Below, piece by piece: positions 18,275 to 52,587 of a stretch of DNA of 64,000 nucleotides. How positions within the stretch are numbered: position 1 is the first letter of the stretch; every line of letters begins with the position of its first letter. The notes below the pieces were generated by a model. It ran no database searches and was not told the origin of the DNA. It saw only the letters and a program-made list of their open reading frames with translations. Position numbers and translations under genes: made by a program. Origin of the DNA: Synergistaceae bacterium (GTDB taxonomy: Bacteria; Synergistota; Synergistia; Synergistales; Aminobacteriaceae); NCBI GenBank assembly GCA_031272035.1, contig JAISUO010000034.1, positions 790-64,789 of the forward strand, in the 5' to 3' direction.

Positions 18275-19120
18275 TTACAGCGCGTATACGAGAGAGCCGT
18301 TTTGGGGCGGGGTCGCCGAGAGCATCCAAAGGGCTTTTTGAACCATTTCTTCTCGATATTTCACCTCATCCTCCCTGGACAGGCGCGGGTTTCCGAAAAC
18401 ACATTCCACGCTGTTGCCCCGGAGGATCCGGTTGACCCCGAAGCTTTCGGCAATTTTCGTCAGGTTGGTCGCCTGAACGACGGGAATGCCCACCCGTTCG
18501 ATTTCTCTGGCGATGATCGCCCCGCAGCGGGTGCTGGTGCCGCAGGTCGAAGAAAGAATGACCGCGTCCGCCTCCGTTTCTTTCAGGGAAAGCGCTATTT
18601 TCTCTCCGAAGGCCTCGCTGTTTTCCGCGGGCGTCATCACTCCAGCTAAAGTATAAAAAATGTCTGAAAGTTTCCCAATAACACCCTGACGCTCAAGACG
18701 GCGCAGGGCGTCTACCGGCATGAGTCGATTGGGGTCTTCGAGAATCAGCGCGTTGTTGTAACCCTGGTGACTGATTTCGTAGTCCTCCGGGGAGAGCTGT
18801 TCTTTTCCGTAAAAAGAGTAGATGCAGAATTTTTTGGCGTTTGAGGGCGTCACGTCGTCCGGATTCCCTTTGGGGACAAGGCCTCCGTCCGTCACAAGGG
18901 CGATCTTCGACTCCGACAGAGGACGCGAAAGGATGGGAACAGAGGAAATTTCGGCGTTCGGCATGGGAACTTCCGTGCAGTATTCCTCTTTTCTGTATTT
19001 TGCCAGAAGCATATTGATTCCCCGCTTTGGAGCGGGTACAGAGTAATCGACTGCCGTTTCTCCCACCCCTCTGAGAGCGTTGGGATTTCCCGCGCCGTAA
19101 ACGACCCCGAGATTTTTCAC
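18275..19120 (-). CDS. GrdB-family (glycine/sarcosine/betaine reductase component B) Cys paralogue, lacking the N-terminal domain
   Basis: 281 aa, collinear with residues ~160-438 of the selenoprotein at 21461..22777. It reads SSTCGTSTRCGA where the other gene has ST-UGA-GTSTRCGA. GTG start preceded by AAGGAGG. Confidence 0.7.
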   Translation of the reverse strand: MKNLGVVYGAGNPNALRGVGETAVDYSVPAPKRGINMLLAKYRKEEYCTEVPMPNAEISSVPILSRPLSESKIALVTDGGLVPKGNPDDVTPSNAKKFCIYSFYGKEQLSPEDYEISHQGYNNALILEDPNRLMPVDALRRLERQGVIGKLSDIFYTLAGVMTPAENSEAFGEKIALSLKETEADAVILSSTCGTSTRCGAIIAREIERVGIPVVQATNLTKIAESFGVNRILRGNSVECVFGNPRLSREDEVKYREEMVQKALWMLSATPPQNGSLVYAL

Positions 19121-19205: not shown

Positions 19206-19841
19206 TCATTTTACATGCGAAACCTGAATTGTATTCTGTGTATTCTGGACGTCAGGTTCCTGACCGGCGGTTTTCTCGTCGGAGGGCGCGATGGAATAGC
19301 GGGATCCCGCCAGCATACTCACGCGGCGAAGCTGTTCGAAGCGGGCCATGTAATCGTCCTGCATACCCTGCTTTACCCAATCCATAACGATGCCCGCGTA
19401 GGAGTGCGCCTCCATGCGCGCCATCAGAAATAATTCTTCGTCGGCGAGTTTGCAGCCTGACTGACTGTAGATCGTGTTGATATGTATTTTCAGAAGCTCG
19501 AAGTAGAAGTCCACGAGGTAGTCCTGCAGCGAATTCTGCCCCGCGTAGTCCAGTGCTTCCAGATAGAAGTCCCGGTTGGCCTGCATGTATCGGCATAACC
19601 TGACAAAACCGTCAAACCAGCGGTCTGGTTCCGAAAAAGCGTTGATCTCGGGAAGGGTTTCGGAGTAAAAAATCCAGTTGATCAAATCATATTTGTCGTT
19701 GAAATGATAGTAAAAGGTATTCCGACTGATACCGCAGTACTCTGTAATATCGGAAACCGTTATTTTTGCCAGACTCTTTTCCTTCACCAGCGCTTTAAGC
19801 GCATCGACCAGAGCCTTTTTCATAAGCGCCGTCTTTGACAT
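19206..19841 (-). CDS. TetR/AcrR family transcriptional regulator
   Basis: N-terminal HTH (ITVSDITEYCGISRNTFYYHFNDKYDLINW). The ATG at 19841 is preceded by GAGGA; the track ORF extends to 19880. Confidence 0.85.
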   Translation of the reverse strand: MSKTALMKKALVDALKALVKEKSLAKITVSDITEYCGISRNTFYYHFNDKYDLINWIFYSETLPEINAFSEPDRWFDGFVRLCRYMQANRDFYLEALDYAGQNSLQDYLVDFYFELLKIHINTIYSQSGCKLADEELFLMARMEAHSYAGIVMDWVKQGMQDDYMARFEQLRRVSMLAGSRYSIAPSDEKTAGQEPDVQNTQNTIQVSHVK

Positions 19842-20052
19842 TTTCGTCCTCGTTTTGTTCAAGCTGAACCCGACAGACAAAACTTAAGCCGGAGGTCGAA
19901 AATTCTCCCCAAAGGTTCATGCAGCAGTTAAAATTTCTCAACATTTTTTGCGCAAATGAAGAATATTGTCCTAAAACCAAACATATTCAGCCAATTAACA
20001 ATTACGGGCGAACAATGATTCTTCCACGTATAAATTATACTATATGCCGTTT

Positions 20053-20092
20053 GTGTTGCTTTGTGTGTTGCTTTGCTTTGTGTGTTGCTTTG
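20053..20092. repeat. Three copies of GTGTTGCTTTG in the tetR / reductase-operon intergenic region
   Basis: Exact 11-mers at 20053, 20065 and 20082, about 50-90 nt upstream of the ATG at 20141. Confidence 0.9.
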
Positions 20093-20140
20093 AAAAATCT
20101 TTGAAATACAGACCCTGTACGGGGTCGGAAGGGAGAAATT

Positions 20141-21436
20141 ATGTGCAGGGAGCTTTCCATCGATTACGTGAATATACGCAACGTCATGTTTGGAAATCGC
20201 ACGGAACTGCGGAACGGCGTGCTGACGCTGGACAAAGAAGAACTCATGGCGCTGGCGAATAAACCCGTATTCGACTCTTTTGACATCAAAATCGCGTCTC
20301 CGGGGGACAGCTGTCGTATCCTCGGAGTTCACGAAGTCATGCAGCCTCGCTGTAAAGTCGACGCGCCGGAAACGTCATACCCTGGAGCATGGGGCAGTCT
20401 CGCCCCGGCGGGGGAGGGGAGAACCGTCGCGCTGCGGGGCGTCGTCATTACGGAGCTTTATTACCCCAAAGCCAACGTCAAGTGGTACCTGGATATGTGT
20501 GAACCCTGTTCTCATTACTCCTACTATGCCCGGCATCATCACATCATCCTGGACGCGACTCCCGGCAGCGGCATCAGTGACCTCACTTACAGCGAGGCGC
20601 TGAAACACTCCGCCCTCTCCATCAATGTCCACCTGGCGAAGCTGGCCATCGGTCAGACACCGGACAAAACAGAATTCTTTTCTCACCGTCCTCTGGATGA
20701 GGGGCAGAGGGGAAAAGACGGGAAAAAGCTGCCTCGCGTGGCGTATCTCTGCACGCTTCAGGCAACTACGGATTTTTGGAACTTTCTTTATTATGGCCAG
20801 AGCGCTGTCGGTTATCTGCCCATCATCGTGCAGCCCACCGAGATTCTGGACGGAGCGGTTATTTTTCGCTATTGGGAAAATACCTACGTGCTTCAGAACG
20901 ATCCCTACGTGAAGGAGCTCCTGAGCCGGCACGGCAAAGATCTCGATTTCGCCGGCGTCGTTTTCGCCAACAACACGATGAGAATAGGCGACAAAAGCGC
21001 GATGGGCCTGATCGCGGCCGGATTGTGCAAAAACACCCTCCGGGCGGATTGCGTCATGGTCAACAAGTCGGGAATGGGACACGCGCAGCTGGACGCGGTT
21101 ATGGCCTTCAACTGGTGCGAAAGCATGGGAATGACCGCGGCGGTCAACCTCGCCGGAGTCAGCAACGACACTCCGGGAGACATGCTGGTCATCGCCGATC
21201 CCAAAGTGGATGCCGTCGTCAACAGCGGCCGGCATTTTCTGCTCGAACATCCAAGGGTTGAGCGCCTCATCGGGGAGGACGTCAACGTTCCCAGTCTGCT
21301 GGGACTCGATCCGCGAGGTCCTTTTACGCACACGACCAACTACGCCTACGCGGGCGTTTACGGTCAGCTCGGAGACTGCTATCGAACCATGGACGACGAC
21401 ATCACATGGACCGCTCCGGAAGCCTGCGCTCAATGA
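20141..21436 (+). CDS. GrdE/GrdG/GrdI-family subunit of a glycine/sarcosine/betaine-type reductase component B
   Basis: 431 aa. Conserved family blocks LPRVAYLCTLQ, PTEILDGAV and RHGKDLDFAGVVF. RBS GGAAGGGAG. Confidence 0.8.
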   Translation: MCRELSIDYVNIRNVMFGNRTELRNGVLTLDKEELMALANKPVFDSFDIKIASPGDSCRILGVHEVMQPRCKVDAPETSYPGAWGSLAPAGEGRTVALRGVVITELYYPKANVKWYLDMCEPCSHYSYYARHHHIILDATPGSGISDLTYSEALKHSALSINVHLAKLAIGQTPDKTEFFSHRPLDEGQRGKDGKKLPRVAYLCTLQATTDFWNFLYYGQSAVGYLPIIVQPTEILDGAVIFRYWENTYVLQNDPYVKELLSRHGKDLDFAGVVFANNTMRIGDKSAMGLIAAGLCKNTLRADCVMVNKSGMGHAQLDAVMAFNWCESMGMTAAVNLAGVSNDTPGDMLVIADPKVDAVVNSGRHFLLEHPRVERLIGEDVNVPSLLGLDPRGPFTHTTNYAYAGVYGQLGDCYRTMDDDITWTAPEACAQ

Positions 21437-21460
21437 AACTGAAAACGAGGTGAAAAAGTC

Positions 21461-22777
21461 ATGGCAAAATACAGAATTGTACATTACGTCAACCAGTTTT
21501 ATGGCGGATTCGGCGGAGAAGACACGGCGGGAATGGGAATAGAGGTCCGCGAAAATCCGGTGGGACCCGGACTCGCCCTGCAGGCGGCCCTTGGCGAAGC
21601 GGGAACGGTGGTCGCCACGGTGATCTGCGGAGATAATTACGCGACAGAAAACCTCGAAAACGTGACGGAGGAAATCCTGAAGATCGTTGAAGGCTTTAAA
21701 CCGGACATATTCGTCGCCGGCCCCGGATTCAACGCCGGGCGCTACGGGCTGATCTGCGGCGCGGTGACCTCCAAAGTCGCCGAACAGCTGCTTATTCCGT
21801 CGGTCACGGCTCTCTATCAGGAAAACCCGGGAACGGATCTTTACAAGGACCGGTGTTACATTCTTAAAACGGACAACAACGCCCGCGACATGAAAAAGGT
21901 CATTTCCGAGCTGGCTCGTTTCGTTCTGCGCCTGGCCGCGGGGGAGGTCATCGGCAAGGGCGATGTGGAACACTACCACGGCAATGGCCCGGCGCCCCTG
22001 ATCGACTACTCTCTTCCAGCGCCGCGGCGGGGTGTGGATATGCTTCTCGCGAAACACGCGGGGTGTCCGTTCAAAACGGAGGTCGTCATACCCTCCCGGG
22101 AACCTGTTCCCATTCCCCGGCTTCACAAGCCGCTTTCGGAAATCAAACTGGCCCTCGTAACCGACGGAGGGCTCGTTCCAAAGGGTAACCCGGACAAAAT
22201 GGTCCCCACCAACTCCACCATGTTCAAATCCTACCCGATAGAGGGAAAAGAGCGTCTGGATGCTCAGGATTACGAGGTCAGCCATCAGGGATACAACAAC
22301 GCTTTCGTTTTACAAAATCCCAACCGGCTCGTCCCTCTGGACGCCGCGAGAACTCTGGTCGCCAGGGGGGAAATCGGGGAGCTCCTTGAGAAATACTACA
22401 CGACCGCGGGCGTGATGACGCCCATGGGCACAGGGAAAAAGTTCGGAGAAAATATCGCGAAAGAGCTGAAAGAAGCCGATGTGGACGCGGTGCTTCTCGT
22501 CTCCACCTGAGGAACGTCTACCCGCTGCGGTGCAGTGATGACAAAAGAGATAGAACGCGCCGGTTTACCTGTAGTTCACGTCACCAACCTCACAAAAATT
22601 GCCGAAGGCATCGGTTCCAAACGCATATTCAGAGGCAACAGCATCGTTCACGTTCTGGGAGATCCCCAGCTTTCACCCGACATGGAGGCACGGTACAGAG
22701 AACAGCTGCTGTCCCAGGCCCTGAAACTTCTGGAAGATGCTCCTGTCGACGAAACGAGCAGCATTATTTACGAATAG
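21461..22777 (+). CDS. GrdB/GrdF/GrdH-family selenoprotein B (in-frame UGA = selenocysteine at 22508-22510)
   Basis: ORFs 21461..22510 and 22535..22777 are in the same frame. Read-through gives ...VDAVLLVST-U-GTSTRCGAVMTKEIERAG..., and the Cys paralogue at 18275..19120 has Cys at the UGA position. Confidence 0.85.
22508..22510 (+). other. Selenocysteine (UGA) codon
   Basis: An in-frame TGA within a conserved ST-x-GTSTRCGA motif. It aligns to TGC (Cys) in the paralogue. Confidence 0.8.
22516..22542 (+). promoter_or_regulatory. Candidate bacterial SECIS hairpin
   Basis: Upper stem CGCUGC/GCAGUG (22523-22528 / 22532-22537) with a GGU apical loop, starting 12 nt after the UGA. A possible lower stem is GUCU/A-GAC. 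Confidence 0.5.
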
Positions 22778-22789
22778 GAGAGATTAGAA

Positions 22790-23515
22790 ATGGAGAATTA
22801 TCTGGTCATTGCGGAAGCCTTTCCCGTCTGGCTTTGTGTTGTTCCCGCCGTTGTTCTCGTTCTGTTTCAGGCGGCGATTTTCGTTAAAAAAGCCTATCGG
22901 GCCGGAGCCGAGATCGGCATGACTCAAAAGCAGCTCAACTCCGCCATACGAGCGAGCGCCATTTCTTCCATCGGGCCGGCTCTGGCCATTCTGTCCACGC
23001 TTTTGGCGCTGCTGGTATTGGTAGGAGGCCCCGTCGCCTGGATGCGCCTTTCCTACATCGGCAACATGCTTTTCGAGGCTTTGGCTTTTAACTTCGGGAT
23101 TACAGCCAGCGGCATCGAGACGGCTGCCGGTCAGGCCGTTACAGGGCAGGCGTTTGTGAACGGCGTTTGGGTCATGATTCTGGGCTCCATCGGCTGGATC
23201 ATCGTTTCGATTCTGATCACGGACAAAATGAACGTCGTGCAGCATAAAATTTCAGGCGGCAACCCGAGAGTCATGCAAATTATCGCCTCCTGCGCCATGA
23301 TTGCGGGCCTGGGTTCGCTTATCGTTCCCTATGTGGTGCCGATCTTCACGGCCGCGAAAGTCGACAGAAACGGTGTGTCCGCCATTGGCGGCGCCGCCGT
23401 CATGGCCGCAATCTGCGCTTTCAATAAAAAACGGAAAATCGGCTGGCTCGGCGAGTGGTCGCTGGCCTTCGCTATCCTGGGCGGCCTCGTGCTGGCGCTC
23501 TGCATAAAAAAGTGA
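22790..23515 (+). CDS. Uncharacterised integral membrane protein (about 6 TM)
   Basis: 241 aa, hydrophobic throughout. RBS GGAGAG. It starts 12 nt after the selenoprotein stop, so it is an operon member. Confidence 0.7.
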   Translation: MENYLVIAEAFPVWLCVVPAVVLVLFQAAIFVKKAYRAGAEIGMTQKQLNSAIRASAISSIGPALAILSTLLALLVLVGGPVAWMRLSYIGNMLFEALAFNFGITASGIETAAGQAVTGQAFVNGVWVMILGSIGWIIVSILITDKMNVVQHKISGGNPRVMQIIASCAMIAGLGSLIVPYVVPIFTAAKVDRNGVSAIGGAAVMAAICAFNKKRKIGWLGEWSLAFAILGGLVLALCIKK

Positions 23516-23545
23516 AACCGGGACAAAAAGAAGGAGAGATATAAA

Positions 23546-24232
23546 ATGGATAAACAGGCGATTCTCGATAAAGACTACATGCCCTACATCAACAAATGGG
23601 GAAAACTGACAAACACCGTGGGCGTGTTTTTCGCTTTCGTTCCGGTTATTTATTTCGGCGTGAGATACGGTTGGTGGCCGCAGCCTGGCCCCGTTTTTCA
23701 GGGCTGGCTCAGCATTTCCGCCAGCGCGGGAATCCTGTGGATTATGCAGCCCATACAGTTCTTCCCCGTCTTAGGCGTTGCGGGAACCTATATGTCCAAC
23801 CTGTCTGGAAACATCTCCAATATGCGGGTTCCCTGTTCCATCGCGGCGGAGCAGGCCGCCGGAGTTCAGCCGGGAACGCCCGAAGCGGAGATTTGCGCGA
23901 ACATCGGCTCGGCCGTGTCAACTCTCATCAATATTCTCGTTCTTTCCGCCGGCGTCCTCGCGGGGTCGTCCCTCCTGGCCCAACTGCCGCCCGCCGCCTC
24001 GGACGCGCTGAAAAGCCTGCTGGTTCCCGCTTTGATTGCCGCCTGCGTCGTCATGGTAGGATGGACCGAGCCTCGTATTCTTCCCCTTGCTTTCCTCCTC
24101 GCGGTTCTCACGCGCATCTTTTTCACGGTCTGTCTGCCCCGGCTCATGTCCATGGCCGACATCACGTCGATTTTTGTCGCGATCTTCGTTTGCGTCGCGC
24201 TGTATAAAATGAAAATTTACATCAGGGATTGA
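23546..24232 (+). CDS. Uncharacterised integral membrane protein (about 6 TM)
   Basis: 228 aa. RBS AAGGAGAG. Last gene before the terminator at 24273. Confidence 0.7.
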   Translation: MDKQAILDKDYMPYINKWGKLTNTVGVFFAFVPVIYFGVRYGWWPQPGPVFQGWLSISASAGILWIMQPIQFFPVLGVAGTYMSNLSGNISNMRVPCSIAAEQAAGVQPGTPEAEICANIGSAVSTLINILVLSAGVLAGSSLLAQLPPAASDALKSLLVPALIAACVVMVGWTEPRILPLAFLLAVLTRIFFTVCLPRLMSMADITSIFVAIFVCVALYKMKIYIRD

Positions 24233-24272
24233 TGGCTTTATAAGCAGCAAACCAGCGAACATATCGTTCAGG

Positions 24273-24305
24273 GGGCCGCTTTCACGAGCGGCCCTTTCGG
24301 TTTTT
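24273..24305 (+). terminator. Rho-independent terminator of the reductase operon
   Basis: GGGCCGCT-TTCACG-AGCGGCCC followed by TTTCGGTTTTT. Confidence 0.75.
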
Positions 24306-24482
24306 CCGACCCCGCTCGCAAATATCGGAAGAGCCGCAATATTCCCCTCCGTTCACAAGTCTCTCGATTGCTTCGGCGTTGATATAAGGTCCGACAAACT
24401 GCCAGGCCGAAGCAACGGAGCTTTTGCCTGAACCGTTCGGTCCCGCGAACACCAATATGTGCGGAGTGTCAGTCAAGATCAT
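24282..24482 (-). pseudogene. Zeta-toxin/AAA-like P-loop toxin remnant (truncated after about 66 aa)
   Basis: MILTDTPHILVFAGPNGSGKSS...YINAEAIERL matches the N-terminus of zeta/COG4185-type kinases. The reading frame then runs into the terminator hairpin and stops. The ATG overlaps the antitoxin stop by 14 nt. Confidence 0.55.
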
Positions 24483-24780
24483 AAACTCTCCTGCCGTCAG
24501 GGTATTCAAGGTACGGACAATTCTGTTCGTCGTCGAACAACGCTGTCGGAGTGCCGTTCTCGACGGCTTTGCTTATTTTTGCTCTGACGCTGCGGCGCAT
24601 AAGGACATCCTGAGGATCGCTGTCGAGTTCGAGTGCAAACGGAATTGACCGACTTCGGGCCACGCGGGTCAAAAAGATGTTGATGCCCGTACTCATATTC
24701 ATGCCCAGCGCGTTGAACACTGTTTCGGCGTTTCGTTTGACTGTGGAGTCAACACGGACGCTCAATCTTGTTTCGCCCAT
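24469..24780 (-). CDS. RelB/DinJ-family antitoxin
   Basis: RHH-type N-terminus (RLSVRVDSTVKRNAETVFNALGMNMSTGINIFLTRVA...IPFAL). The ATG at 24780 lies 7 nt after GGAGGTG. Confidence 0.7.
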   Translation of the reverse strand: MGETRLSVRVDSTVKRNAETVFNALGMNMSTGINIFLTRVARSRSIPFALELDSDPQDVLMRRSVRAKISKAVENGTPTALFDDEQNCPYLEYPDGRRVYDLD

Positions 24781-24904
24781 TATGGAACACCTCCGCATCC
24801 AATATGTTCCATTTATACATCCAATGGAGATACAATAGCAAGCGTTATATTTGGAAAAAGATTACTCCTCGAATAACATCCTCGAAAATTTCAAAAATTT
24901 CTCC

Positions 24905-24948
24905 TTGACAAATTTTTATAGAATGAATATACTAACGCTATTCATTCT
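24905..24948 (+). promoter_or_regulatory. Sigma70-like promoter with an overlapping 10-bp inverted repeat (putative Fur/PerR-type operator)
   Basis: TTGACA (24905-24910), 17 nt, TATACT (24928-24933). The perfect inverted repeat AGAATGAATA (24920-24929) / TATTCATTCT (24939-24948) spans the -10. Confidence 0.5.
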
Positions 24949-25005
24949 TAATAGCTTAAATGAATCCGCCTCACGCGGAAAAACAAAGGGGGCGACGGAG
25001 CGGGG

Positions 25006-25422
25006 ATGAAAGATTTCGACCCCAGCCCTGCGCAAACACTTATTCGGCGTCAGACGGTGCAGAGGAAACTGGTTTTAGACGCGGTTCGCGCGGGTTGTCA
25101 CCCGTCGGCGCGGGAGATATTCGTCTCGGTTTCCCAGTCGGCCCGCGTCAGTTTCGGAACGGTCTACAGGAACCTGCAGGTTCTGGAGGAGGAGGGCGAA
25201 ATCGCTCGCGTTGAAATAGACCCGGAGGTAGTTCGCTACGACTGGAAACTGACGCCTCATCATCATTTCCGATGCGTGAAATGCGGGCGCGTGTTGGATT
25301 TCCCCGTGCCCTGCCGCGTCGAGTTGGACAGGGACGCGGAGGAGGAAAGCGGTTTTGTAGTCGAGCGCCGCCTCGTGGCTTTCGAGGGGATTTGTCCGGA
25401 GTGCCGAAGTTCGGACGCCTGA
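25006..25422 (+). CDS. Fur-family (Fur/PerR/Zur) transcriptional regulator
   Basis: Winged-helix N-domain, HHHFRCVKCG and CPEC metal-site motifs. 138 aa. Confidence 0.85.
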   Translation: MKDFDPSPAQTLIRRQTVQRKLVLDAVRAGCHPSAREIFVSVSQSARVSFGTVYRNLQVLEEEGEIARVEIDPEVVRYDWKLTPHHHFRCVKCGRVLDFPVPCRVELDRDAEEESGFVVERRLVAFEGICPECRSSDA

Positions 25423-25616
25423 GTCGTTTCTCCAAAAGGAGAGCGTTTTATTTTAAGCAATAAATAATAACGATTCCTGTTATTGTTTATTCCTGGATTA
25501 GCTTCCCTGACTTTAGAAAGGTGATCTGTGAAGAATGCCAAAATACTGGTATATCGGGAGTACTGGCAGGATTGCCCTGCTTAAATACGTGTGCTGCGGG
25601 AGCACGAAGACATCCC

Positions 25617-25638
25617 GCAAATATATTGCAAATATATT
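25617..25638. repeat. 2 x 11-bp exact tandem repeat GCAAATATATT abutting the RBS
   Basis: Copies at 25617-25627 and 25628-25638, immediately upstream of GAAGGAGGAG. Confidence 0.9.
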
Positions 25639-25655
25639 GAAGGAGGAGAATGGTT

Positions 25656-26225
25656 ATGAGAAGTTTCACAACGCTGGACCTGCAATACGCTCACAGATTT
25701 TACGGATTCAAAGGTGAAGCCCAGTATTTGCACGGGCACACGGGGATACTGACGCTTGAGGTCGAGGATACCATCAACGCGGGCGTCAATATGGTTTTTC
25801 CCTGCAACGAAATTAAGAAAACCGCCTGGGAAGTTTTACAAAACTTTGACCACGCACTGATTCTCAGAGAGGACGACCCGCTGCTTCCCGCGATTCTTGG
25901 CGTTTACGAGACACAGGGCATCAAGGACGGAGCACCGAGCAATAAACAGAAAGGCCCCGCTTTCAAAACGGAGCTTGCGACAGCGTATCCCGAATGTCGT
26001 TTGGTGGTCACGAAAGAAACGATGACCGTTGAGGGCATGATTAAGATCGTTTACGATTTGCTTAAAGACAAGCTGAATATTGTTAAAATCACCTTCACGA
26101 GCGGAGTAAACGGCGCTGTGCAGGAATACAGCGAAAAACACCAGAAAGAACAGGACCGTTGCCCGTTGTGCGGAATTGCTCTGAACAAAGACGGCGTGTG
26201 TCCAAAATGCGGTTACAGGAAATAG
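25656..26225 (+). CDS. 6-pyruvoyl-tetrahydropterin synthase / QueD-family protein with a C-terminal zinc ribbon
   Basis: HRFYGFKGEAQYLHGHTG (PTPS HGH motif), plus a C-terminal CPLCG...CPKCG. The second ATG (25656) has better spacing to the RBS than 25650. Confidence 0.65.
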   Translation: MRSFTTLDLQYAHRFYGFKGEAQYLHGHTGILTLEVEDTINAGVNMVFPCNEIKKTAWEVLQNFDHALILREDDPLLPAILGVYETQGIKDGAPSNKQKGPAFKTELATAYPECRLVVTKETMTVEGMIKIVYDLLKDKLNIVKITFTSGVNGAVQEYSEKHQKEQDRCPLCGIALNKDGVCPKCGYRK

Positions 26226-26313
26226 TCGAAAGGTCATAAATCCAGGCAGTGTCATTAAAAAGCTGCAGGACTGGCGGGAATTGCGATCATGTTCCCGCCA
26301 GTCTCTTTTTCGG

Positions 26314-26874
26314 TTACAGGTTCAAACGCATATAGGCGTTGTCGATATCGTCCTGCTCAATGCCGATGTATCGCAGAGTGTCCACGCTCATGGAGTGGTT
26401 CAGGAGCTTCTGGACCAGCCCCAGATCTCCCGTACGGCGGTATACGTGATACCCGAAGGTTTTTCTCAAAGTGTGGGTGCCGATGGCATCCAGTCCCACA
26501 TCCCGGGCGACGTCGGAGAGAATGCGCCAGGCCTGTACTCTGGAAATGGGCCTTGCGCCTCTGGCCGATGCGAAAAGAAACTCGGTGTCATCCATCTCGT
26601 CTGTCAGACAGCTTTTCAGCGTTCGAGTGACCGAGAAATTCAGGGGAAAGCGTTTTATCTTTCCCGTTTTGGCCTCCTGAAGGTAAAGGCAGGTGCGCAG
26701 CTGCCCATTGTCGTTACGAACATCCCGCACCGTAAGAGACAGGAGGTCGCCGATTCGAAGCGCGGTGTTGATGCCCATCACGAAAAGCAGCAAATCCCGA
26801 GGATTTTTTCCCCGGAGGATCCGTTTCATCGACTTGATTTTGCCTGTGCTGCGAATGGGTTCCACAATCCTCAT
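26314..26874 (-). CDS. Small tyrosine-type site-specific recombinase (catalytic domain only, FimB/FimE-sized)
   Basis: 186 aa. Motifs ALRIGDLLSL (Arg I), HTLRKTF (H-x-x-R) and LLNHS...TLRY (His / Tyr nucleophile). Confidence 0.8.
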   Translation of the reverse strand: MRIVEPIRSTGKIKSMKRILRGKNPRDLLLFVMGINTALRIGDLLSLTVRDVRNDNGQLRTCLYLQEAKTGKIKRFPLNFSVTRTLKSCLTDEMDDTEFLFASARGARPISRVQAWRILSDVARDVGLDAIGTHTLRKTFGYHVYRRTGDLGLVQKLLNHSMSVDTLRYIGIEQDDIDNAYMRLNL

Positions 26875-27303
26875 TTTTCATCCTCTGCAGTCTGGAGTTT
26901 TGTGTCTTAGAGAGCTCTCTGTCTTCGCCGCGACGAATCTACTATCTCACATCCGATATATTTTTACCTCCGAAAAACAAAGTATTTTTATTAAAAAAAT
27001 ATGAAAAATATAGTTATAAAAAGATTTTTCTTGTATATATCGTATTTATTCGTTTATTAGTAAAAATTTAAAATAATAATTAACATGGATATTAGTCAGA
27101 GATTGGATTGTATAGAAAAAAATTGATTTGCCGACAGATATAATAATAAGCAGAAAAAGACGAGGAATAATGTTTCTCAGGTCATATTGTTTGACATGCA
27201 ATACATAATGAAATATGATTTACCTGTACGAAGGGACGGAGCGTTCGAAACGTCCCCTCGGGAATATGAAGTCGAAAATAGTCGATAATCAGGAGGTATT
27301 ACT

Positions 27304-27924
27304 GTGGATTGTTGTAACAGCAGGGCGCGTATAGGACAGGCCGCTCCGGAATTTTCCGCGGAAGGTTTTTCAGCGGTGGAGGACGGTTTTCACCATTACG
27401 CGCTCTCCGAATGCAAAGGGAAGTGGGTTTTGCTCTTTTTCTATCCGGGGGACTTTACATATGTATGTCCAACCGAACTTCAATCCCTGGCGGAGTATAA
27501 AAAGGATTTCGAGGAACTTGGAGTGCAGGTTTTTCTCATAAGCACGGACAGTCGTTATTCTCACAAGCAGTGGAATCAGTACGAACTGTCGAAGATGATC
27601 GACGGAGGAATGCCCTACGCGATGCTGCCCGACCAGACGGGCGCCCTTGGCAGGCCTTATGATTTCTACGATGAAAGCGCGGGCGTGGACCTTCGAGGGA
27701 CGGTGGTCATCGATCCCGACGGAGTCGTTCAGCTCATTTACGCCAACGCTCCCGCCATCGGACGTCATCCCGGAGAGATCGTGCGCTGCATTCGCGCACT
27801 CAGGGAATACCGCGACAACGGCAATGTAGTTCCCGCCTGCTGGATTCCGGGGCTGGAAACCATCGATCCCTCCTATGAAAATTCGGGAAGAGTCTGGGAG
27901 ACGTACAAATCGAAGAAAAAGTAA
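27304..27924 (+). CDS. Peroxiredoxin (AhpC/Prx1-type 2-Cys)
   Basis: Peroxidatic motif FTYVCPTE and resolving-Cys region VVPACW. GTG start 8 nt after AGGAGG. Confidence 0.9.
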   Translation: MDCCNSRARIGQAAPEFSAEGFSAVEDGFHHYALSECKGKWVLLFFYPGDFTYVCPTELQSLAEYKKDFEELGVQVFLISTDSRYSHKQWNQYELSKMIDGGMPYAMLPDQTGALGRPYDFYDESAGVDLRGTVVIDPDGVVQLIYANAPAIGRHPGEIVRCIRALREYRDNGNVVPACWIPGLETIDPSYENSGRVWETYKSKKK

Positions 27925-28048: not shown

Positions 28049-29596
28049 TCATTTCACCTGTCGAATCACGTCGAGGACGCTTCCGTCCCGCCATTCCAGA
28101 ACGGCGACGATGCGTTCCTCTGTCTCCAACGGGTCCATGGGGCCGGAAATACGCAGAGCCTTTTCGATCAGTTCATCCATGGAAACCACAGGAACGTCCC
28201 GCGCTTCCTTTATACACTCCAGAAGGTCCTGACGGCGGGGGTTGATCGTTGCCCCGTACTCCGTGACAAGAACGTCGATCGCTTCCCCCGGAGTGGTGAC
28301 GCAGTGAACGTTTTCCACCACGCAGGGAACACGTCCTCTCGTCAGCGGCTGGGCCACAATGGTCAGGGCGGCGCCCGCAGCCGTGTCCTGATGGCCTCCG
28401 ATGCCGTGCAGAAGCATTCCGTCGCTTTCGGTGTTGACGTTGACGTTGAAATTTCTGTCAATTTCCGTGGCCCCCAGAACGACCACGTCCAGCATATTGA
28501 CTGCCGCTCCGGCGTTCCAGGGGTTGGCATATTCGTCCGCCGAAATTTCACCGTGCCCGGGGTTGCGCGCCAGAGATTCGACGGCCGCCGCGTCGAAGGA
28601 CTGAACGTCCAGCAGGTGCGTCAGCAGCCCTTCTTCCAGCAGATTCACGAAGAAGCCCGTTATGCCGCCCAGTCCGAAACTGCCCCGAATTCCCCTGCGG
28701 AGCATGGCTTCTCTCATGAAGGAGGTGACGGCCAGAGCGGTTCCGCTGGCTCCTGTCTGAAAGGAGATTCCCTCTCTGAAAAGGGGGGAGGTTTCGATAA
28801 CTCCGGCTGCATAGCGGGCGATCATGAGGTGCAGGGGGTCCTTTGTCACGGCAGTGCTGCCTGAAACGATCCCTTTAGGGTCGCCGATGGAGGGAATTTC
28901 CACGACGAAATCCGTATAAACCTGAGAAATGGAGGCGGGGACGAGAAGGCCGGGCAGCAGGTTGTCCGTAACGCCCACGACGCAGTCGGCGTATTCCGCG
29001 TCGGTGCGGGCGTATCCCAGCGGTCCGCAGGCGGATTTCCCCGTTTGTCCCGAAAGATTCCCGAAACGGTCCGCCGCCGGAGCCGCGATAAACGCCACAT
29101 CCACAGGAGCTTCTCCGGACATGATCGCCCGGGGACGTCCGCCGTGGCTTCTCAGAACCACGGGCGCTTCCATGCCCCCTCGGGAGATCATTCGCCCCAG
29201 AGCGCCGTTGACAGACCCCATGATCTTGCGGATCACCCCTGACCGGATGTGGTTCAGAAGGGGTTCGTGGACCGGAAAAAGCGCCGTTGGAAAAAGCGTC
29301 AGGTCCCGGATTCCCATTCGGGCGCAGACCTCCAGCACGGCGTTGATCACGTGATCTCCGTTGCGGAGATGGTGGTGAAAGGAGATCGTCATCCCGCTTT
29401 GCAGACCGGAAGCAGCGACGGCGTCTTCAAGGCTTCGGAGGACCTTTCCGCTTTTCCCTCCGGGACGAAAAATCCGCCCTCTCCGGCGACCGGCGGGCCG
29501 GCGTCCCTCCAGTCCCGTCCAGGGAATGGTCGGACCGTAGCCCTCGATGCAGGCGGGAATTTCCCGTCCCAACGCGTTTCGGGTTTTGGCGCTCAT
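28049..29596 (-). CDS. citF: Citrate lyase alpha subunit (citrate CoA-transferase)
   Basis: 515 aa. Conserved blocks GMTISFHHHLRNGD, LRSHGGR and DVQSFD...SLARNP.H.EISA..YANP. ATGA overlap with citE. Confidence 0.9.
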   Translation of the reverse strand: MSAKTRNALGREIPACIEGYGPTIPWTGLEGRRPAGRRRGRIFRPGGKSGKVLRSLEDAVAASGLQSGMTISFHHHLRNGDHVINAVLEVCARMGIRDLTLFPTALFPVHEPLLNHIRSGVIRKIMGSVNGALGRMISRGGMEAPVVLRSHGGRPRAIMSGEAPVDVAFIAAPAADRFGNLSGQTGKSACGPLGYARTDAEYADCVVGVTDNLLPGLLVPASISQVYTDFVVEIPSIGDPKGIVSGSTAVTKDPLHLMIARYAAGVIETSPLFREGISFQTGASGTALAVTSFMREAMLRRGIRGSFGLGGITGFFVNLLEEGLLTHLLDVQSFDAAAVESLARNPGHGEISADEYANPWNAGAAVNMLDVVVLGATEIDRNFNVNVNTESDGMLLHGIGGHQDTAAGAALTIVAQPLTRGRVPCVVENVHCVTTPGEAIDVLVTEYGATINPRRQDLLECIKEARDVPVVSMDELIEKALRISGPMDPLETEERIVAVLEWRDGSVLDVIRQVK

Positions 29597-30513
29597 GGCC
29601 GTTTTCCCTCCTCTCCGCTCTCCATTCCGTCCTTCATCGGCGTCATCCCCGCCAGGCTCAGAAGGTAACGGGCGCGTTTAATGACGGGGACATCCACCAG
29701 TTTGCCGTCCACCGCCACGGCGCCCTGTCCTTTGCGGGCCGCTTCTTCCGCCGCGCGAAGGATGCGCAGAGAGTTTTCCGTTTCCTGCCGCGTCGGGGTG
29801 TAAACCTCATGAATAATCGGAATTTGTCCGGGGTGCAGGACGTTTTTTCCGTCAAATCCCAACTGTCGGACAAAAGCGGTTTGTTCTCTCAGGCCTTCGA
29901 GGTCGTGAATTCTCGGGTAGGCCGTGTCCAGAACGTCGACGCCGGCGGCCCGCCCCGCCACAAGAGTCATGCGACGAATCCAGTCCAGCTCGCTCTCCCC
30001 GGCAGAGCGGCTCGTCCGGAGATCCGCCGCCAGATCTTCCCCGCCGGGGGTTATGCCCGTGATTCGAGAAGAGGCCGTTGCGATGTCGAAGGCCTTCCAC
30101 ACCGCCTTCGCGCTTTCCAGAAGACAGAAAATCGTAAAATGTCCCGCCTTCAGCCCGTGTTTTTCTTCCAGTTCCGAGAGGGCTTCGTCCAAAAGAGACG
30201 CCATGGCGGCCGATTCCGCCTTGGGCAGGCGTATTCCGTCGACCTGAGGGTTGACTGCCGCCGCGGAGGCCACCGCCTCCAGGTCCTCGCGCCAAAACTC
30301 CGTGTCCATGCCATTGACGCGGACGGAGACTTCGCAACTCCCGAAATCCTGCCAGGAAAGGATTTTTTGCACCAAAATCCGGGCGGCATCCTTTTCTTTT
30401 TGGGGAACAGAATCCTCCAGGTCGAGAATCAGGCCGTCAGGACGGAATAAATGTCCTCGCAGAAGCATGTTCGGGTTGTTGCCGGGAAGGTACATCATCG
30501 TTCGTCTGCGCAT
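29593..30513 (-). CDS. citE: Citrate lyase beta subunit (citryl-CoA lyase, HpcH/CitE family)
   Basis: MRRRTMMYLPGNNPNM...LILDLEDSV is the typical CitE N-terminus. The start is ambiguous between 30513 (AAAGGGG RBS) and 30531. Confidence 0.85.
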   Translation of the reverse strand: MRRRTMMYLPGNNPNMLLRGHLFRPDGLILDLEDSVPQKEKDAARILVQKILSWQDFGSCEVSVRVNGMDTEFWREDLEAVASAAAVNPQVDGIRLPKAESAAMASLLDEALSELEEKHGLKAGHFTIFCLLESAKAVWKAFDIATASSRITGITPGGEDLAADLRTSRSAGESELDWIRRMTLVAGRAAGVDVLDTAYPRIHDLEGLREQTAFVRQLGFDGKNVLHPGQIPIIHEVYTPTRQETENSLRILRAAEEAARKGQGAVAVDGKLVDVPVIKRARYLLSLAGMTPMKDGMESGEEGKRP

Positions 30514-30532
30514 TTCGGGCCCCTTTCGCATC

Positions 30533-30808
30533 TCATTCCGTTTCCTCTTCTTCCGGCCCGGACAGGCGTGCACAGGCCGTTTCGGCCCGGGCGGCCACCA
30601 CCACATCCCAGGCTCCATGATCCTGCACATGAACGATTGCGTCGGTGAGGCCGAAATCCGTTAAAACCTGTCTCACGGTCCGGTCGATGGCGCTTTGAAA
30701 CCGGCCGCCTCCCGATACGGTGAGAGAAACGCCGCTTCCCGAAGGCGCTTCTTCGACGACGACCATGCAGTCCATGGATTCCAGAGTTCCGGCCGTTGCG
30801 CGTCTCAT
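30533..30808 (-). CDS. citD: Citrate lyase gamma subunit (acyl carrier protein)
   Basis: 91 aa from the internal ATG. It carries the AGTLES motif that holds the prosthetic-group serine. ATGA overlap with the permease stop. Confidence 0.8.
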   Translation of the reverse strand: MRRATAGTLESMDCMVVVEEAPSGSGVSLTVSGGGRFQSAIDRTVRQVLTDFGLTDAIVHVQDHGAWDVVVAARAETACARLSGPEEEETE

Positions 30809-32742
30809 TGCGTTTTCGCGGTCCCTTCCGCTCCCGTTTCGGGCTTCCCGCCGGAGCTGCGTTTTTTCCCCAGCGCGTACAGAAGCCCCAGAACCGCCAG
30901 TCCGGTGACGTCGCTCTTCCATCCGGGGATGATCATGCCCAGGGCCCCCGCCAGGGCGAGGGCTCTTTCCCAAAGGGAGAGTTTGTCGAGCAGATACCCT
31001 TCGATGCCCGCCGACAGAACGAATACGCCGATAATGGCGGTAGCCAGCGCCTGTGCGAAATCAACCCAGTTTCGCACGTTGGGCAGGAGAAGTTCGGGAG
31101 AATAAATGAACACGAACGGGATGATAAAGCCGGACAGCACCATTTTCACCGAAGTGAAGGCCGTCTGGTTGGGGTTCGCTCCGGCGATTCCCGCCGCCGT
31201 GTAGGCCCCGACGCAGACCGGGGGCGTCACCGACGAGAGAACGGCGAAGAAGAACACGAAGAAATGGACGTCCAGAGGTTTGCAGCCGATGATCGTCAGA
31301 GCCGGAGCCGCCACGGCGCTGGCCATGACGTAGCTGGCCGTCGTCGGCATCCCCATGCCCAGGATCAGGGAGATGATCATCGTCACCACAAGGGTCGGCA
31401 TCAGTTTGCCGGCGGTGTAGCTCAGGATGGTGTCGCCGATGCGGAGGGCGATGCCGGTGGCTCCCATCATTCCAATGACGACTCCCACAAGGGTGCAGGC
31501 CACCGCCACGGAGAGCGCCGATTTCGAGCCCTCCTCCAGGGTGGAAATAAAGCTCCTCAGGTTCAGTCTGTCCTTTCTGTCGATGAAACTCAGGGCGACA
31601 CAGGTTCCGATTCCCCAACAGGCCGAATAGAGGGGGTTGTATCCCTGCACCAGAAAATAAATGATGACGCAAAGGGGCAGAGCCTTGTAGCCGCTCCGGA
31701 TGAGCACCTCGGAAACTTTGGGCAGAGAGCTTTTATCCAGTCCTTTCAGATTCAGTTTCGAGGCCTGGAGACTGAGACAGCACCATATCCCCCAAAAGTA
31801 GAGCAGGGCCGGAACCACAGACGCCGAGACCACCCGAATGTAGGGAACTCCGATGGAGTCCGCGATGATGAAGGCGGCCGACCCCAGTACGGGGGGCATG
31901 ATCTGACCTCCGGTGGAGGCCGCCGCCTCCACGGCTCCGGCGTAGAACGAGGGATAACCGATTTTTTTCATGAGCGGGATCGTAAAAGCGCCTGTGGTCG
32001 CCACGTTTGCCGAAGTGCTGCCGCTTATGGTTCCCATCAGAGCGCTGGAAATCACGGCGATTTTGGCCGGGCCGCCTTTTTTGTGGCCGGTGAGAGCCAT
32101 GGAAATGTCGTTGAAGAAACTTGAAGTTCCCGTGGAGCTCAGGAACGACCCGAACAGGATGAAAAGATAGATGTAGGTGGCTGAAACACCCGCCACCAGC
32201 CCAAACAGCCCGTCCGTGGTCAGGTACAGCTCCTCAATGATGCGGGGCACGGAGAGCCCGAAATGCCGGAACAGCGTTGGCATGGAGCGTCCATAATAGG
32301 CAAAAAACAGGAAGAACGCGCAGAAGATCGGCAGCGGGTAACCCAGAACGCGCCGCGCCGCCTCGAACACGAGCAGTATCATCAGCGCCCCCAGGTAGAG
32401 CTCCAGTGTTGTGTAGGTTCCCGAGCGCCGGGCTATTTCCTCGTACATGATGAAAACGTACAGGGTGGAGGCCGCCGCCGCTATGGCGAGCACCCAGTCC
32501 AGGACGGTCGGTTTGTCGAAGGGCGAGCGTTTTGTGGCCGGGTAGAGCAGAAAAATCAGAAACAGAACCAGCGCGATGTGAAAACTTCTCTGCTGCATTG
32601 CGGGCAGAAGTCCGAAGGCCGAAGTGTACAAATGGAAAACAGCCAGGATGACGGTGACGACAGTTATTAAAATCCCCAGTTTCCCTCCGGGGTTTCGTCG
32701 TTTGCCACGTTTTGCGGGGGCCTGTGCCTCCGTTGCGGACAT
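30805..32742 (-). CDS. TRAP transporter, fused permease (TAXI-type)
   Basis: About 645 aa with many TM segments and DctM-like blocks. The ATG at 32742 follows GGGAGGAG; the track ORF extends to 32781. Confidence 0.85.
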   Translation of the reverse strand: MSATEAQAPAKRGKRRNPGGKLGILITVVTVILAVFHLYTSAFGLLPAMQQRSFHIALVLFLIFLLYPATKRSPFDKPTVLDWVLAIAAAASTLYVFIMYEEIARRSGTYTTLELYLGALMILLVFEAARRVLGYPLPIFCAFFLFFAYYGRSMPTLFRHFGLSVPRIIEELYLTTDGLFGLVAGVSATYIYLFILFGSFLSSTGTSSFFNDISMALTGHKKGGPAKIAVISSALMGTISGSTSANVATTGAFTIPLMKKIGYPSFYAGAVEAAASTGGQIMPPVLGSAAFIIADSIGVPYIRVVSASVVPALLYFWGIWCCLSLQASKLNLKGLDKSSLPKVSEVLIRSGYKALPLCVIIYFLVQGYNPLYSACWGIGTCVALSFIDRKDRLNLRSFISTLEEGSKSALSVAVACTLVGVVIGMMGATGIALRIGDTILSYTAGKLMPTLVVTMIISLILGMGMPTTASYVMASAVAAPALTIIGCKPLDVHFFVFFFAVLSSVTPPVCVGAYTAAGIAGANPNQTAFTSVKMVLSGFIIPFVFIYSPELLLPNVRNWVDFAQALATAIIGVFVLSAGIEGYLLDKLSLWERALALAGALGMIIPGWKSDVTGLAVLGLLYALGKKRSSGGKPETGAEGTAKTQ

Positions 32743-32886
32743 TGCCTCATCTCCTCCCTGAAGTTCGCCGGAAGGCCGCATGTGAGCCTCCCGACGATTT
32801 TAAAAGTGTAATGAACGTAAAGAGAAATGAATGTAATGAGAAGATCGAAAAATCCCCGATGATTTTTATTCGATTTTATTCTTTTT

Positions 32887-51058: not shown

Positions 51059-51172
51059 TTTCTCGAGTTTCCTTTCAATATTCCCTTCGGTTTTTTCAAA
51101 AGTATCACAATTGTTTCTGCCGAAAGCGCAGTCCGAAGGAGTACAGGGGAACACTTTGGCCTGGTGGAGTTG

Positions 51173-51679
51173 TCAGGCGGGGTTTAAAATGGAAGGATCT
51201 GCGGTGAAAAGGGTCAATTCTCCACTTTCATCCCACCTGAGCAGCAGAGTCAAAGGGTCTCGAATTTGAACGCTGGTCCGTACGGGGCGGAGGTTGGCTC
51301 CCTCGCGCTCCAGAATGAAAAACGTAAAGCGGTCCCTGTCCATGGTGCGGAATTCCTCTCTCAGGGCGACCAGGTTGAGGGGAAGGACGGTGATTTTCGT
51401 CCCCGCGTCAAGGATGGGCTCCCAGATTCTCCGGTCGGTCGCGGAAAGCAGCTTCGACAGGGCGATCGCCGCAGGTGGAGTCATCCATTCAGCATCGGTT
51501 TTTTCAACTGAAGTCCGTTCAGTCGGAGCCTGTTCAGTTGCAGTCCGTTCAGTTGAAGTTTGTTCCGGAGCCTGTTCGGCCGGAGTCCCTTCAGTGGGGA
51601 AAGAAAGCGTCTCCGGTTCGAGATGCACCTCTCCCGTTTTCAGATAATCTTTGAGGCTGGGTCTCCTCTTTCTAGTCAT
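51173..51679 (-). CDS. Hypothetical ParA-partner-like protein (basic N-terminus, T/E/Q/A/P-rich disordered centre, globular C-terminus)
   Basis: The ATG at 51679 overlaps the ParA-like stop by 8 nt. The N-terminus is MTRKRRPSLKDYLK, followed by the repeats TERTATEQAPTERTS. I recognise no ParB/HTH motif. Confidence 0.5.
   Translation of the reverse strand: MTRKRRPSLKDYLKTGEVHLEPETLSFPTEGTPAEQAPEQTSTERTATEQAPTERTSVEKTDAEWMTPPAAIALSKLLSATDRRIWEPILDAGTKITVLPLNLVALREEFRTMDRDRFTFFILEREGANLRPVRTSVQIRDPLTLLLRWDESGELTLFTADPSILNPA
51505..51600. repeat. Imperfect intragenic tandem repeats
   Basis: GTCCGTTCAGT at 51513 and 51543; CGGAGCCTGTTC at 51524 and 51566. They encode the TERT / EQAP repeats of the partner protein. 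Confidence 0.8.
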
Positions 51680-52439: not shown

Positions 52440-52587
52440 GCACAATTCCCCCTTTAAGCAGGAGAATACCATAATATACGGATATAAAAAGCCGTAGTCT
52501 TTATTGTTTTGCTCTCTTCAGGCCTCTTTTTTCAGATTTTCTGTTTCCAGGTACAATAAAGAAAAACCTGGCAGTAACAAAAAAACG

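Follow-up and report, generated by a model that had tools for sequence, protein, structure and literature searches.

A six-gene Far-type cassette in a Synergistaceae bacterium: a selenoprotein B module linked to a DUF5058/M2 membrane pair and a TetR/short-GrdB gene pair

The stretch of DNA analysed here, referred to as the window, is 64,000 nucleotides long and comes from a Synergistaceae bacterium (GenBank assembly GCA_031272035.1, contig JAISUO010000034.1, positions 790 to 64,789). It contains a six-gene cassette that we call Far-type, with reference to the selenium-dependent fluoroacetate reductase FarE/FarB described in gut Synergistota by Leong et al. 2023 (PMC10838667). The minus strand carries a short, cysteine-containing paralog of GrdB (18275-19120, 281 aa), with its own AAGGAGG ribosome-binding site 9 nt before a GTG start, and upstream of it a TetR-family regulator, whose longest open reading frame spans 19206-19880 and whose likely true start is the ATG at 19841, preceded by a GAGGA ribosome-binding site. 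Divergent from these, on the plus strand, are the genes for a FarE-like subunit of the GrdE family (20141-21436, 431 aa), a FarB-like selenoprotein B (21461-22777, 438 aa, with an in-frame TGA at 22508-22510), a DUF5058 membrane protein (22790-23515, 241 aa, about 5-6 transmembrane helices) and a second membrane protein, M2 (23546-24232, 228 aa, about 6 transmembrane helices). The spacers between these four genes are 24, 12 and 30 nt, a purine-rich ribosome-binding site is found at each, and the operon is closed by an intrinsic terminator at 24270-24297 on the same strand (12-bp stem with 7 G-C pairs, 4-nt loop, T-rich tail). A preliminary description of the window had placed a four-gene operon with ribosome-binding sites, terminator and divergent TetR gene at these positions, and correctly so; it had taken the TetR protein as a lone regulator and overlooked the gene at 18275-19120. 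It had also called the module portable, which agrees with the presence of the same six genes, amid other flanking genes, in a relative of 86% identity (locus L078) and of further relatives in several phyla. A 636-aa antisense open reading frame (20375-22285, minus strand) that overlaps farE and farB is regarded as a shadow reading frame and not as a gene; comparable long antisense frames are present in other GC-rich Far loci.

The published system provides the background for these assignments. In Cloacibacillus porcorum MFA1 the genes farACEB, which encode the MFS antiporter FarA, the radical-SAM protein FarC, FarE and FarB, are induced about 5,000-fold by monofluoroacetate (MFA); grdA is also upregulated with MFA, and glycine upregulates far only a little (PMC10838667). 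FarE is without the cysteines for pyruvoyl formation and FarB without the CxxC motif, and the authors proposed that FarEB produces a carboxymethyl-selenoether which enters the ordinary GrdA/GrdC pathway (PMC10838667). Fluoride was released by three species, including C. evryensis and Pyramidobacter piscolens (PMC10838667). Reviews refer to a 'glycine reductase-type defluorinase', inferred from genomics only, and cleavage of the C-F bond by this type of enzyme is counted among the very few proposed direct reductive defluorinations (PMC11777429).

The first subunit of the window matched Pfam Gly_reductase with 250 bits and the NCBIfam model for fluoroacetate reductase subunit FarE (NF053623) with 694.1 bits, narrowly above the cut-off of 675. 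The second-best NCBIfam model, sarcosine GrdG, gave 168 bits against a cut-off of 780, and the D-proline reductase model PrdA 23.5 bits against 700. Identity with the FarE proteins of P. piscolens W5455 and C. evryensis was 62-63%, and, apart from one 100%-identical cluster, the closest relatives (86%, 70% and 69% identity) were from uncultured Synergistota. In a neighbour-joining tree built without bootstrap, the window protein, P0002, L001 and the first copy in L069 formed a clade sister to the canonical FarE clade, which contains P. piscolens and C. evryensis. Canonical members scored 896-948 bits on NF053623 (P. piscolens 938, C. evryensis 896), the four members of the window clade 694, 691, 670 and 669 bits, ie either side of the cut-off, and a third clade (L069 copy 2, L074) 464-479 bits. 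On these comparisons the protein B of the window is best placed as a member of the FarEB family or as a sister to the published FarE/FarB; since membership by the curated score is only marginal, functional equivalence with FarE is presumed. The preliminary description had suggested a reductase for an unidentified amine substrate; its family is known, as the protein passes the FarE model and FarE/FarB had been published in 2023, and the phylogenetic comparison then suggested as a refutation named the GrdBE, GrdFG and GrdHI clades and left FarEB out. Because the family is the FarEB of Leong et al., the idea of a stand-alone protein B served by a shared core is likewise an already published model. 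PDB sequence searches with FarE and with FarB found no solved relatives.

Other GrdE-like proteins (L045, L047-L051) carry the loop DGA-x-x-x-C-G-G-x-R-C after a conserved QPTE[IV]LDGA, and at this position all FarE-type proteins, that of the window included, have a deletion of three residues and no cysteine. The cysteine-containing comparators (L045-L052) pass no named equivalog and are not confirmed as bona fide GrdE, so the argument from the missing pyruvoyl cysteines leans partly on Leong et al. By alignment, the window FarE appears to be neither a pyruvoyl proprotein nor self-cleaving. Schiff-base chemistry on primary or secondary amines is unlikely in a FarE without the pyruvoyl-forming loop, and an amine of either kind is thus an unlikely substrate for the window FarEB; the amine favoured by the preliminary description loses its footing with the cysteine loop reported to give the pyruvoyl group (PMC10838667). 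A substrate with an intrinsic leaving group (halide, quaternary ammonium or sulfonium) would fit better.

The second subunit matched Pfam GRDB with 426.7 bits and passed only the generic selenoprotein B model, TIGR01918 (409.8 bits, cut-off 65.45). It fell short of the equivalog cut-offs for GrdF (458 against 800), GrdB (TIGR01917; 381 against 602) and GrdH (381 against 775), and of the PrdB cut-off (81 against 300). The view that this is a substrate-specific module consisting of protein B only is consistent with these scores, which lie under the cut-offs for glycine GrdB, sarcosine GrdF/GrdG and betaine GrdH. The active-site motif is LLVST-U-GTSTRCG, and the reading frame is continuous and conserved past the TGA. 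The core of the motif, ST-U-GTS[ST]RCG, is kept in 31 FarB orthologs, and reads UxxSxxC where UxxCxxC would otherwise be expected. A hairpin of the selenocysteine insertion sequence (SECIS) type, CGCUGC-GGU-GCAGUG, lies on the plus strand at 22523-22537, 12 nt past the UGA, and is the centroid structure of the fold. Its codons are nearly invariant at synonymous sites in 25 distinct selenocysteine (Sec)-encoding farB genes from several phyla (CGC 25/25, TGC 24/25, GGT 23/25, GCA 25/25, GTG 20/25), whereas 11 paralogs with cysteine (Cys) encode the same R-C-G-A residues with mixed codons. The thermodynamic fold z-score of the region after the UGA was not significant, so the SECIS case rests on this synonymous-codon control, which is direct evidence of a SECIS-type constraint acting on the RNA.

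GrdA, GrdC, GrdD, TrxA and TrxB were absent from the 64-kb window: no match with E below 0.1 came from tblastn with the complete TrxB/TrxA/GrdA/GrdC/GrdD set of locus L021, and none of them turned up in motif scans, in accord with the earlier statement that GrdA, GrdC/D, thioredoxin and thioredoxin reductase are all missing from it. Clostridium lapidicellarium (L021, 3125-10600) and Clostridium aromativorans (L022) have an operon trxB-trxA-grdA(Sec)-grdC-grdD-farE-farB, in which FarEB occupies the place usual for GrdEB. These two operons, together with the reported upregulation of grdA with MFA, back the plug-in model proposed for the window, and support at the family level the coupling of FarEB to a GrdA/GrdCD/thioredoxin core. 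Rfam (at gathering thresholds) and ARAGORN were run over all 64 kb without a match, be it a riboswitch (fluoride, glycine or other) or a tRNA-Sec.

A genome scan gave about 44 loci with a FarE 54-69% identical to that of the window. The hosts beyond Synergistota are many Lachnospiraceae (Faecalimonas, Dorea, Hespellia, Bariatricus, Merdimonas), Oscillospiraceae, Clostridium, Catonella, Olsenella/Atopobiaceae, one Thermoanaerobacterales metagenome-assembled genome and one deltaproteobacterial one. Far-type loci thus occur well beyond Synergistota, which appears to be new. All open reading frames within about 8 kb of farE were clustered, and the neighbours counted by locus. The most frequent was a TetR gene (28 loci), followed by a carrier of the L-lactate-permease family, Lactate_perm (16), an Abhydrolase_3 esterase (12), a DsbA-like protein (11), a FarA-like MFS protein (9), other alpha/beta hydrolases (9), an M20 amidohydrolase (9), a FarC-like radical-SAM protein (8), and LrgB, TRAP DctM and the DUF5058+M2 pair (4 each). 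From these counts, the small-carboxylate carriers that accompany the Far reductase genes differ between lineages. Locus L082 (4272-15517), whose FarE is identical with the P. piscolens W5455 protein, has a divergent gene of the L-lactate-permease family, along with the TetR/short-GrdB pair, a DsbA-like gene, two GntR regulators and two alpha/beta hydrolases; the published view that P. piscolens has no evident transporter (PMC10838667) may need revision. In nine loci from Lachnospiraceae and Atopobiaceae (L005, L007, L008, L009, L019, L020, L024, L030, L039) a protein of 138-159 aa, acidic and outside any Pfam family, stands beside the Abhydrolase_3 esterase downstream of farB, in many cases as two copies.

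The TetR protein contains the Pfam domains TetR_C_8 (62.8 bits) and TetR_N (36.6 bits). Its top NCBIfam match is TIGR02366, DhaS (110.7 bits, under the cut-off of 129), and its top PDB matches, near full length, are 4mk6 (DHAK regulator, 1e-17) and 2iu5 (DhaS, 3e-11). The short GrdB gene shares the strand of the TetR gene and follows it after 85 nt. Its product matches only the C-terminal half of GrdB (Pfam GRDB 177 bits, profile positions 181-347 only; TIGR01918 223 bits), stays under the cut-off of the PrdB model TIGR04483 (81.6 against 300 bits) and has Cys at the Sec position of FarB (SSTCGTSTRCG). The 25 full-length orthologs from Far loci all have Cys at this position and a length of 236-293 aa, and most align from about FarB residue 144-148. 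The possibility of a pseudogene fragment was ruled out by the ribosome-binding site, the intact motif, the conserved length and the many orthologs. The short GrdB is a stable family which belongs to the Far system. By tblastn, both a TetR gene and a second GrdB-like match are present in 27 of the 44 Far loci, and in 18 of the 23 loci resolved by clustering of reading frames the TetR gene is directly upstream of the short GrdB on the same strand. The overlap between the two genes amounts to 7 nt (ATGTTAA) in L003 and to 4 nt in L082, the locus of the P. piscolens type. What had been described as a lone TetR regulator is therefore one member of a conserved pair, in which a DhaS-like TetR goes with a Cys paralog of GrdB.

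DhaS is an exception among TetR regulators in that its inducer is a macromolecule: DhaQ, which binds the substrate and is a paralog of DhaK, a subunit of the enzyme (PMC4325133, PMC7590123). By analogy, the pairing suggests a DhaS/DhaQ-style switch in the Far cassette, with the short Cys-GrdB as substrate sensor; Cys, being less reactive than Sec, would suit such a role. The same protein could instead be a PrdB-like catalytic or resolving subunit, in which case the reductase would be self-contained, as is D-proline reductase, and would draw electrons from another thiol system without GrdA/GrdCD. The size and domain of the paralog are those of PrdB and it keeps the active-site motif with Cys; it stays with farEB away from the TetR gene in some loci, eg downstream of farB in L010; DsbA-like thioredoxin-fold genes are found at 11 Far loci, and the window has no core genes. 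However, the complete trx-grdA-grdCD operons embed FarEB in two genomes (L021 and L022) without a short paralog, about 40% of Far loci have none within 8 kb, grdA is reported to be upregulated with MFA (PMC10838667), and the TetR-first order with overlapping genes points to a regulator complex and not to an enzyme subunit. A self-contained reductase is, on this evidence, quite improbable.

Two elements of the TetR/farE intergenic region were considered as operators. A perfect palindrome, TTTGCGCAAA, at 19947-19956 falls within the best-conserved block of the alignment between the window and L078, where the L078 version is TTTGTGCAAA, and is put forward as a candidate operator with low confidence. 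Three direct repeats of about 19 nt (TGCTTTGTGTGTTGCTTTG) at 20045-20092, spaced by 12 and 17 nt, lie 50-95 nt before the farE start. They were rejected as an operator since L078, at 86% identity, does not conserve them.

The first membrane protein was assigned to Pfam DUF5058 (PF16481, 201.5 bits against a cut-off of 28.2, covering profile positions 3-222 of 222), and no publication on this family was found in the literature search. M2 matched no family in Pfam or NCBIfam, and its 36 relatives gave no Pfam match either. The earlier remark that neither membrane protein could be assigned to a known transporter family stands for both, although the first protein does have a family, DUF5058. DUF5058 and a directly following M2-family gene (222-243 aa) were adjacent in all 13 distinct contexts retrieved (the window, L001, L046, L069, L071, L073, L074, L075, L076, L077, L078, L080, L081), ie the two are, as had been supposed, a conserved and uncharacterised two-gene unit. 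The co-occurrence with grdB-like genes suggested for checking was found in six of the 13, where the pair accompanies Far-like GrdE/GrdB genes of two subclades (window, L001, L046, L069, L074, L078). In six others, from Bacilli, Tissierella, Fusobacteriaceae and unassigned metagenome contigs, the pair is in operons with M20D amidohydrolases (TIGR01891), of the same subfamily as the one that follows farB in nine canonical Far loci; in L077 the contig ends just past the pair. Locus L069 (3300-11119) has the order short GrdB (minus strand), TetR, window-type FarE, DUF5058, M2, third-type FarE, Sec-FarB and a radical-SAM gene, ie two diverged FarE paralogs with one FarB; its third-type FarE is 45% identical and scores 479 bits on the FarE model.

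M2 proteins share the core P-x-x-[FY]-[FY]-x-[VI]-L-G-x-x-G-T-Y-M-S-x-[LI]-S-G-N-I-x-N-M-R-V-P-C. In a profile search, about 1,000 representative clusters matched M2 at E ≤ 1e-3; among the top 150 listed, lengths ran from 117 to 284 aa and no DUF5058-M2 fusion was seen, so the fusion route to proving a complex gave nothing. BLASTP and hhalign (probability 0.3) ruled out that DUF5058 and M2 are paralogs of each other. The AF2 models of both proteins are all-helical, with pLDDT 76 and pTM 0.51 for M2 and pLDDT 80 and pTM 0.61 for DUF5058. Foldseek against the PDB gave no significant match (best E = 1.6 for M2 and 3.1 for DUF5058; query-length-normalised TM-scores ≤ 0.28). In other Far loci the place of the pair is held by known small-carboxylate carriers (lactate permease, MFS, TRAP, LrgB). 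On the basis of this gene linkage, our best reading is that DUF5058 and M2, as the two subunits of one carrier, would take up a small carboxylate or an N-substituted, amino-acid-like compound.

A different role for the pair was also considered, as an exporter of the product or leaving group (fluoride, acetate), as a membrane anchor or sensor, or as proteins unrelated to the reductase. The pair is without homology or fold similarity to any transporter, and release of fluoride would call for detoxification, with no fluoride exporter or riboswitch seen nearby. Set against this are the uptake carriers for small carboxylates recognised in the same neighbourhood at other loci, the co-transcription of the pair with farEB across spacers of 12 and 30 nt, and the other steady partners of the pair, the M20D amidohydrolases, cytoplasmic enzymes that depend on import of their substrate and free no halide. 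We regard a non-import role as improbable.

The reading that we favour, and hold to be somewhat on the probable side, is of a Far-type cassette which combines a protein B reductase, a two-subunit carrier and regulation by TetR and the short GrdB. FarE and Sec-FarB would form the substrate-specific protein B of a reductase of the glycine type. The Sec of FarB would attack C2 of an alpha-substituted acetate which brings its own leaving group; that group would be expelled and a carboxymethyl-selenoether formed on FarB. This would then be passed to selenoprotein A (GrdA) and converted by GrdC/GrdD to acetyl-phosphate, with electrons supplied by thioredoxin; the genes for the GrdA/GrdC/GrdD/thioredoxin core are presumably located at another place in the genome. 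Import of the substrate would fall to DUF5058 with its obligate partner M2, in place of the MFS FarA, lactate-permease, TRAP or LrgB carriers. The divergent DhaS-like TetR and the short FarB paralog would control expression, the Cys paralog binding the substrate and acting, as DhaQ does on DhaS, as a macromolecular effector of the TetR protein.

Several observations weigh against this reading. The window FarE is in a sister clade, two of the four members of which are under the FarE cut-off. The cassette has neither the MFS FarA nor the radical-SAM FarC of farACEB; both are accessory, as P. piscolens is also without them, and L001 and L069 have a farC-like radical-SAM gene after M2 and after farB, respectively. 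The membrane pair resembles no known transporter, and confidence in its models is no more than moderate. The short GrdB is away from the TetR gene in L010, L007 and L016, an arrangement which also fits an enzyme subunit. The Rfam scan of the window gave no fluoride riboswitch, and no fluoride exporter was found there. Finally, the literature search found no biochemistry of FarEB, the family assignment resting on transcriptomics and genomics.

The identity of the substrate is the point at which the favoured reading is most closely rivalled. The same enzymology and coupling to GrdA would hold if the physiological substrate of the sister clade, perhaps of the whole family, were not fluoroacetate but a natural alpha-substituted acetate or a glycine derivative bearing a good leaving group, and freed from an ester or amide by the accompanying hydrolases, with fluoroacetate an adventitious substrate of Far. 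The window clade is phylogenetically separate and at or under the FarE cut-off, and for this reason its substrate may differ from fluoroacetate. The window-type and third-type FarE in the single cluster of L069 imply diverged specificities. Far is common in Lachnospiraceae, Olsenella, Catonella and others of the human and animal gut, where fluoroacetate is no obvious nutrient; M20D amidohydrolases (9 loci), esterases (12) and alpha/beta hydrolases (9) are recurrent neighbours, and away from Far loci the DUF5058/M2 pair keeps to operons with M20D amidohydrolases. The possibility that Far prefers a compound other than fluoroacetate was raised by Leong et al. as well (PMC10838667). On the other hand, fluoroacetate is the only substrate experimentally linked to the family, by a strong and specific induction and by release of fluoride (PMC10838667), there is no candidate for the natural substrate, the neighbourhood associations are indirect, and the window cassette itself has no hydrolase. 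A natural substrate other than fluoroacetate is a real possibility, to which we give less than even weight. A broader proposal joins it to two others: DUF5058/M2 as secondary carriers of a new fold for small N-acyl or alpha-substituted carboxylates, and a DhaS/DhaQ-like switch in which the Cys paralog would capture the substrate, possibly covalently as a carboxymethyl thioether. That all of these hold together is doubtful.

The cassette may lie in an acquired or variable region, as suggested by a dip in GC content and by the genes directly downstream. GC is 0.63 at 16-18 kb, drops to 0.47-0.555 between 18 and 28 kb and returns to 0.60. Directly 3' of the cassette (24282-27924) are a truncated ATPase fragment, a RelB antitoxin, a Fur-family regulator, a PTPS-like protein with a C-terminal zinc ribbon, a tyrosine recombinase (185 aa) and a peroxiredoxin. 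Further on, citrate lyase alpha and beta genes (CitF, CitE-like) stand beside a 657-aa fused TRAP DctM-type permease (28049-32781, minus strand); these look like ordinary metabolism with no tie to the Far cassette. A 1,530-aa open reading frame (46562-51154, minus strand) adjoins a ParA-like gene (51672-52472).

The adjacency of DUF5058 and M2, the pairing of TetR with the short GrdB and the wide distribution of Far appear to be new here. The presence of the module in gut Lachnospiraceae, Olsenella, Clostridium and a deltaproteobacterium extends it far beyond the three Synergistota species reported. The occurrence of farEB inside complete grd operons is a direct genomic argument for the hand-off to GrdA, and these compact trx-grd-far operons are suited to heterologous reconstitution, the biochemistry which the family still needs. 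The conserved regulator pair could serve as a biosensor for the true Far substrate. If the predicted transport role of DUF5058/M2 is correct, the family uses interchangeable uptake systems, and naming the substrate of the pair would help to annotate the M20D amidohydrolase operons of Bacilli, Tissierellia and Fusobacteria.

Two-component carriers of the LrgAB/PftAB type are made of two small, adjacent and co-transcribed polytopic membrane proteins, as are DUF5058 and M2. LrgB-family genes are near farEB in four loci, as DUF5058/M2 is elsewhere. The likeness is one of arrangement; DUF5058/M2, with a transport role that is predicted, has no similarity to these carriers in sequence, profile or fold. 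The regulator pair is comparable to DhaS/DhaQ of Lactococcus lactis: the TetR protein is closest to DhaS and is paired with a paralog of a subunit of the presumed target enzyme, and the two genes are adjacent, overlapping in some loci. It differs in that the TetR score is 110.7 against the 129 bits required and in that the partner is of the GrdB/PrdB type and not a DhaK paralog. The comparison is an analogy only.

The closest known system is farACEB. Here, as there, a FarE that is predicted to be non-processed and that passes the FarE cut-off is followed by a Sec-FarB without the first Cys of the CxxC motif, and protein B is present by itself with the core elsewhere; the TetR/short-GrdB pair is shared with the far locus of P. 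piscolens. The window departs from the loci of that paper in carrying the DUF5058/M2 pair, which is absent from their description. Compared with GrdB/E, GrdF/G and GrdH/I, the window proteins are under the respective equivalog thresholds, have UxxSxxC in place of UxxCxxC, and are encoded by genes that are not adjacent to grdA, grdCD or trx. The two-subunit architecture, the region of the selenocysteine motif, the placement of the SECIS and the proposed hand-off to GrdA are nevertheless common to all of these systems, and FarE resembles betaine reductase GrdI in not being a pyruvoyl proprotein (PMC10838667).

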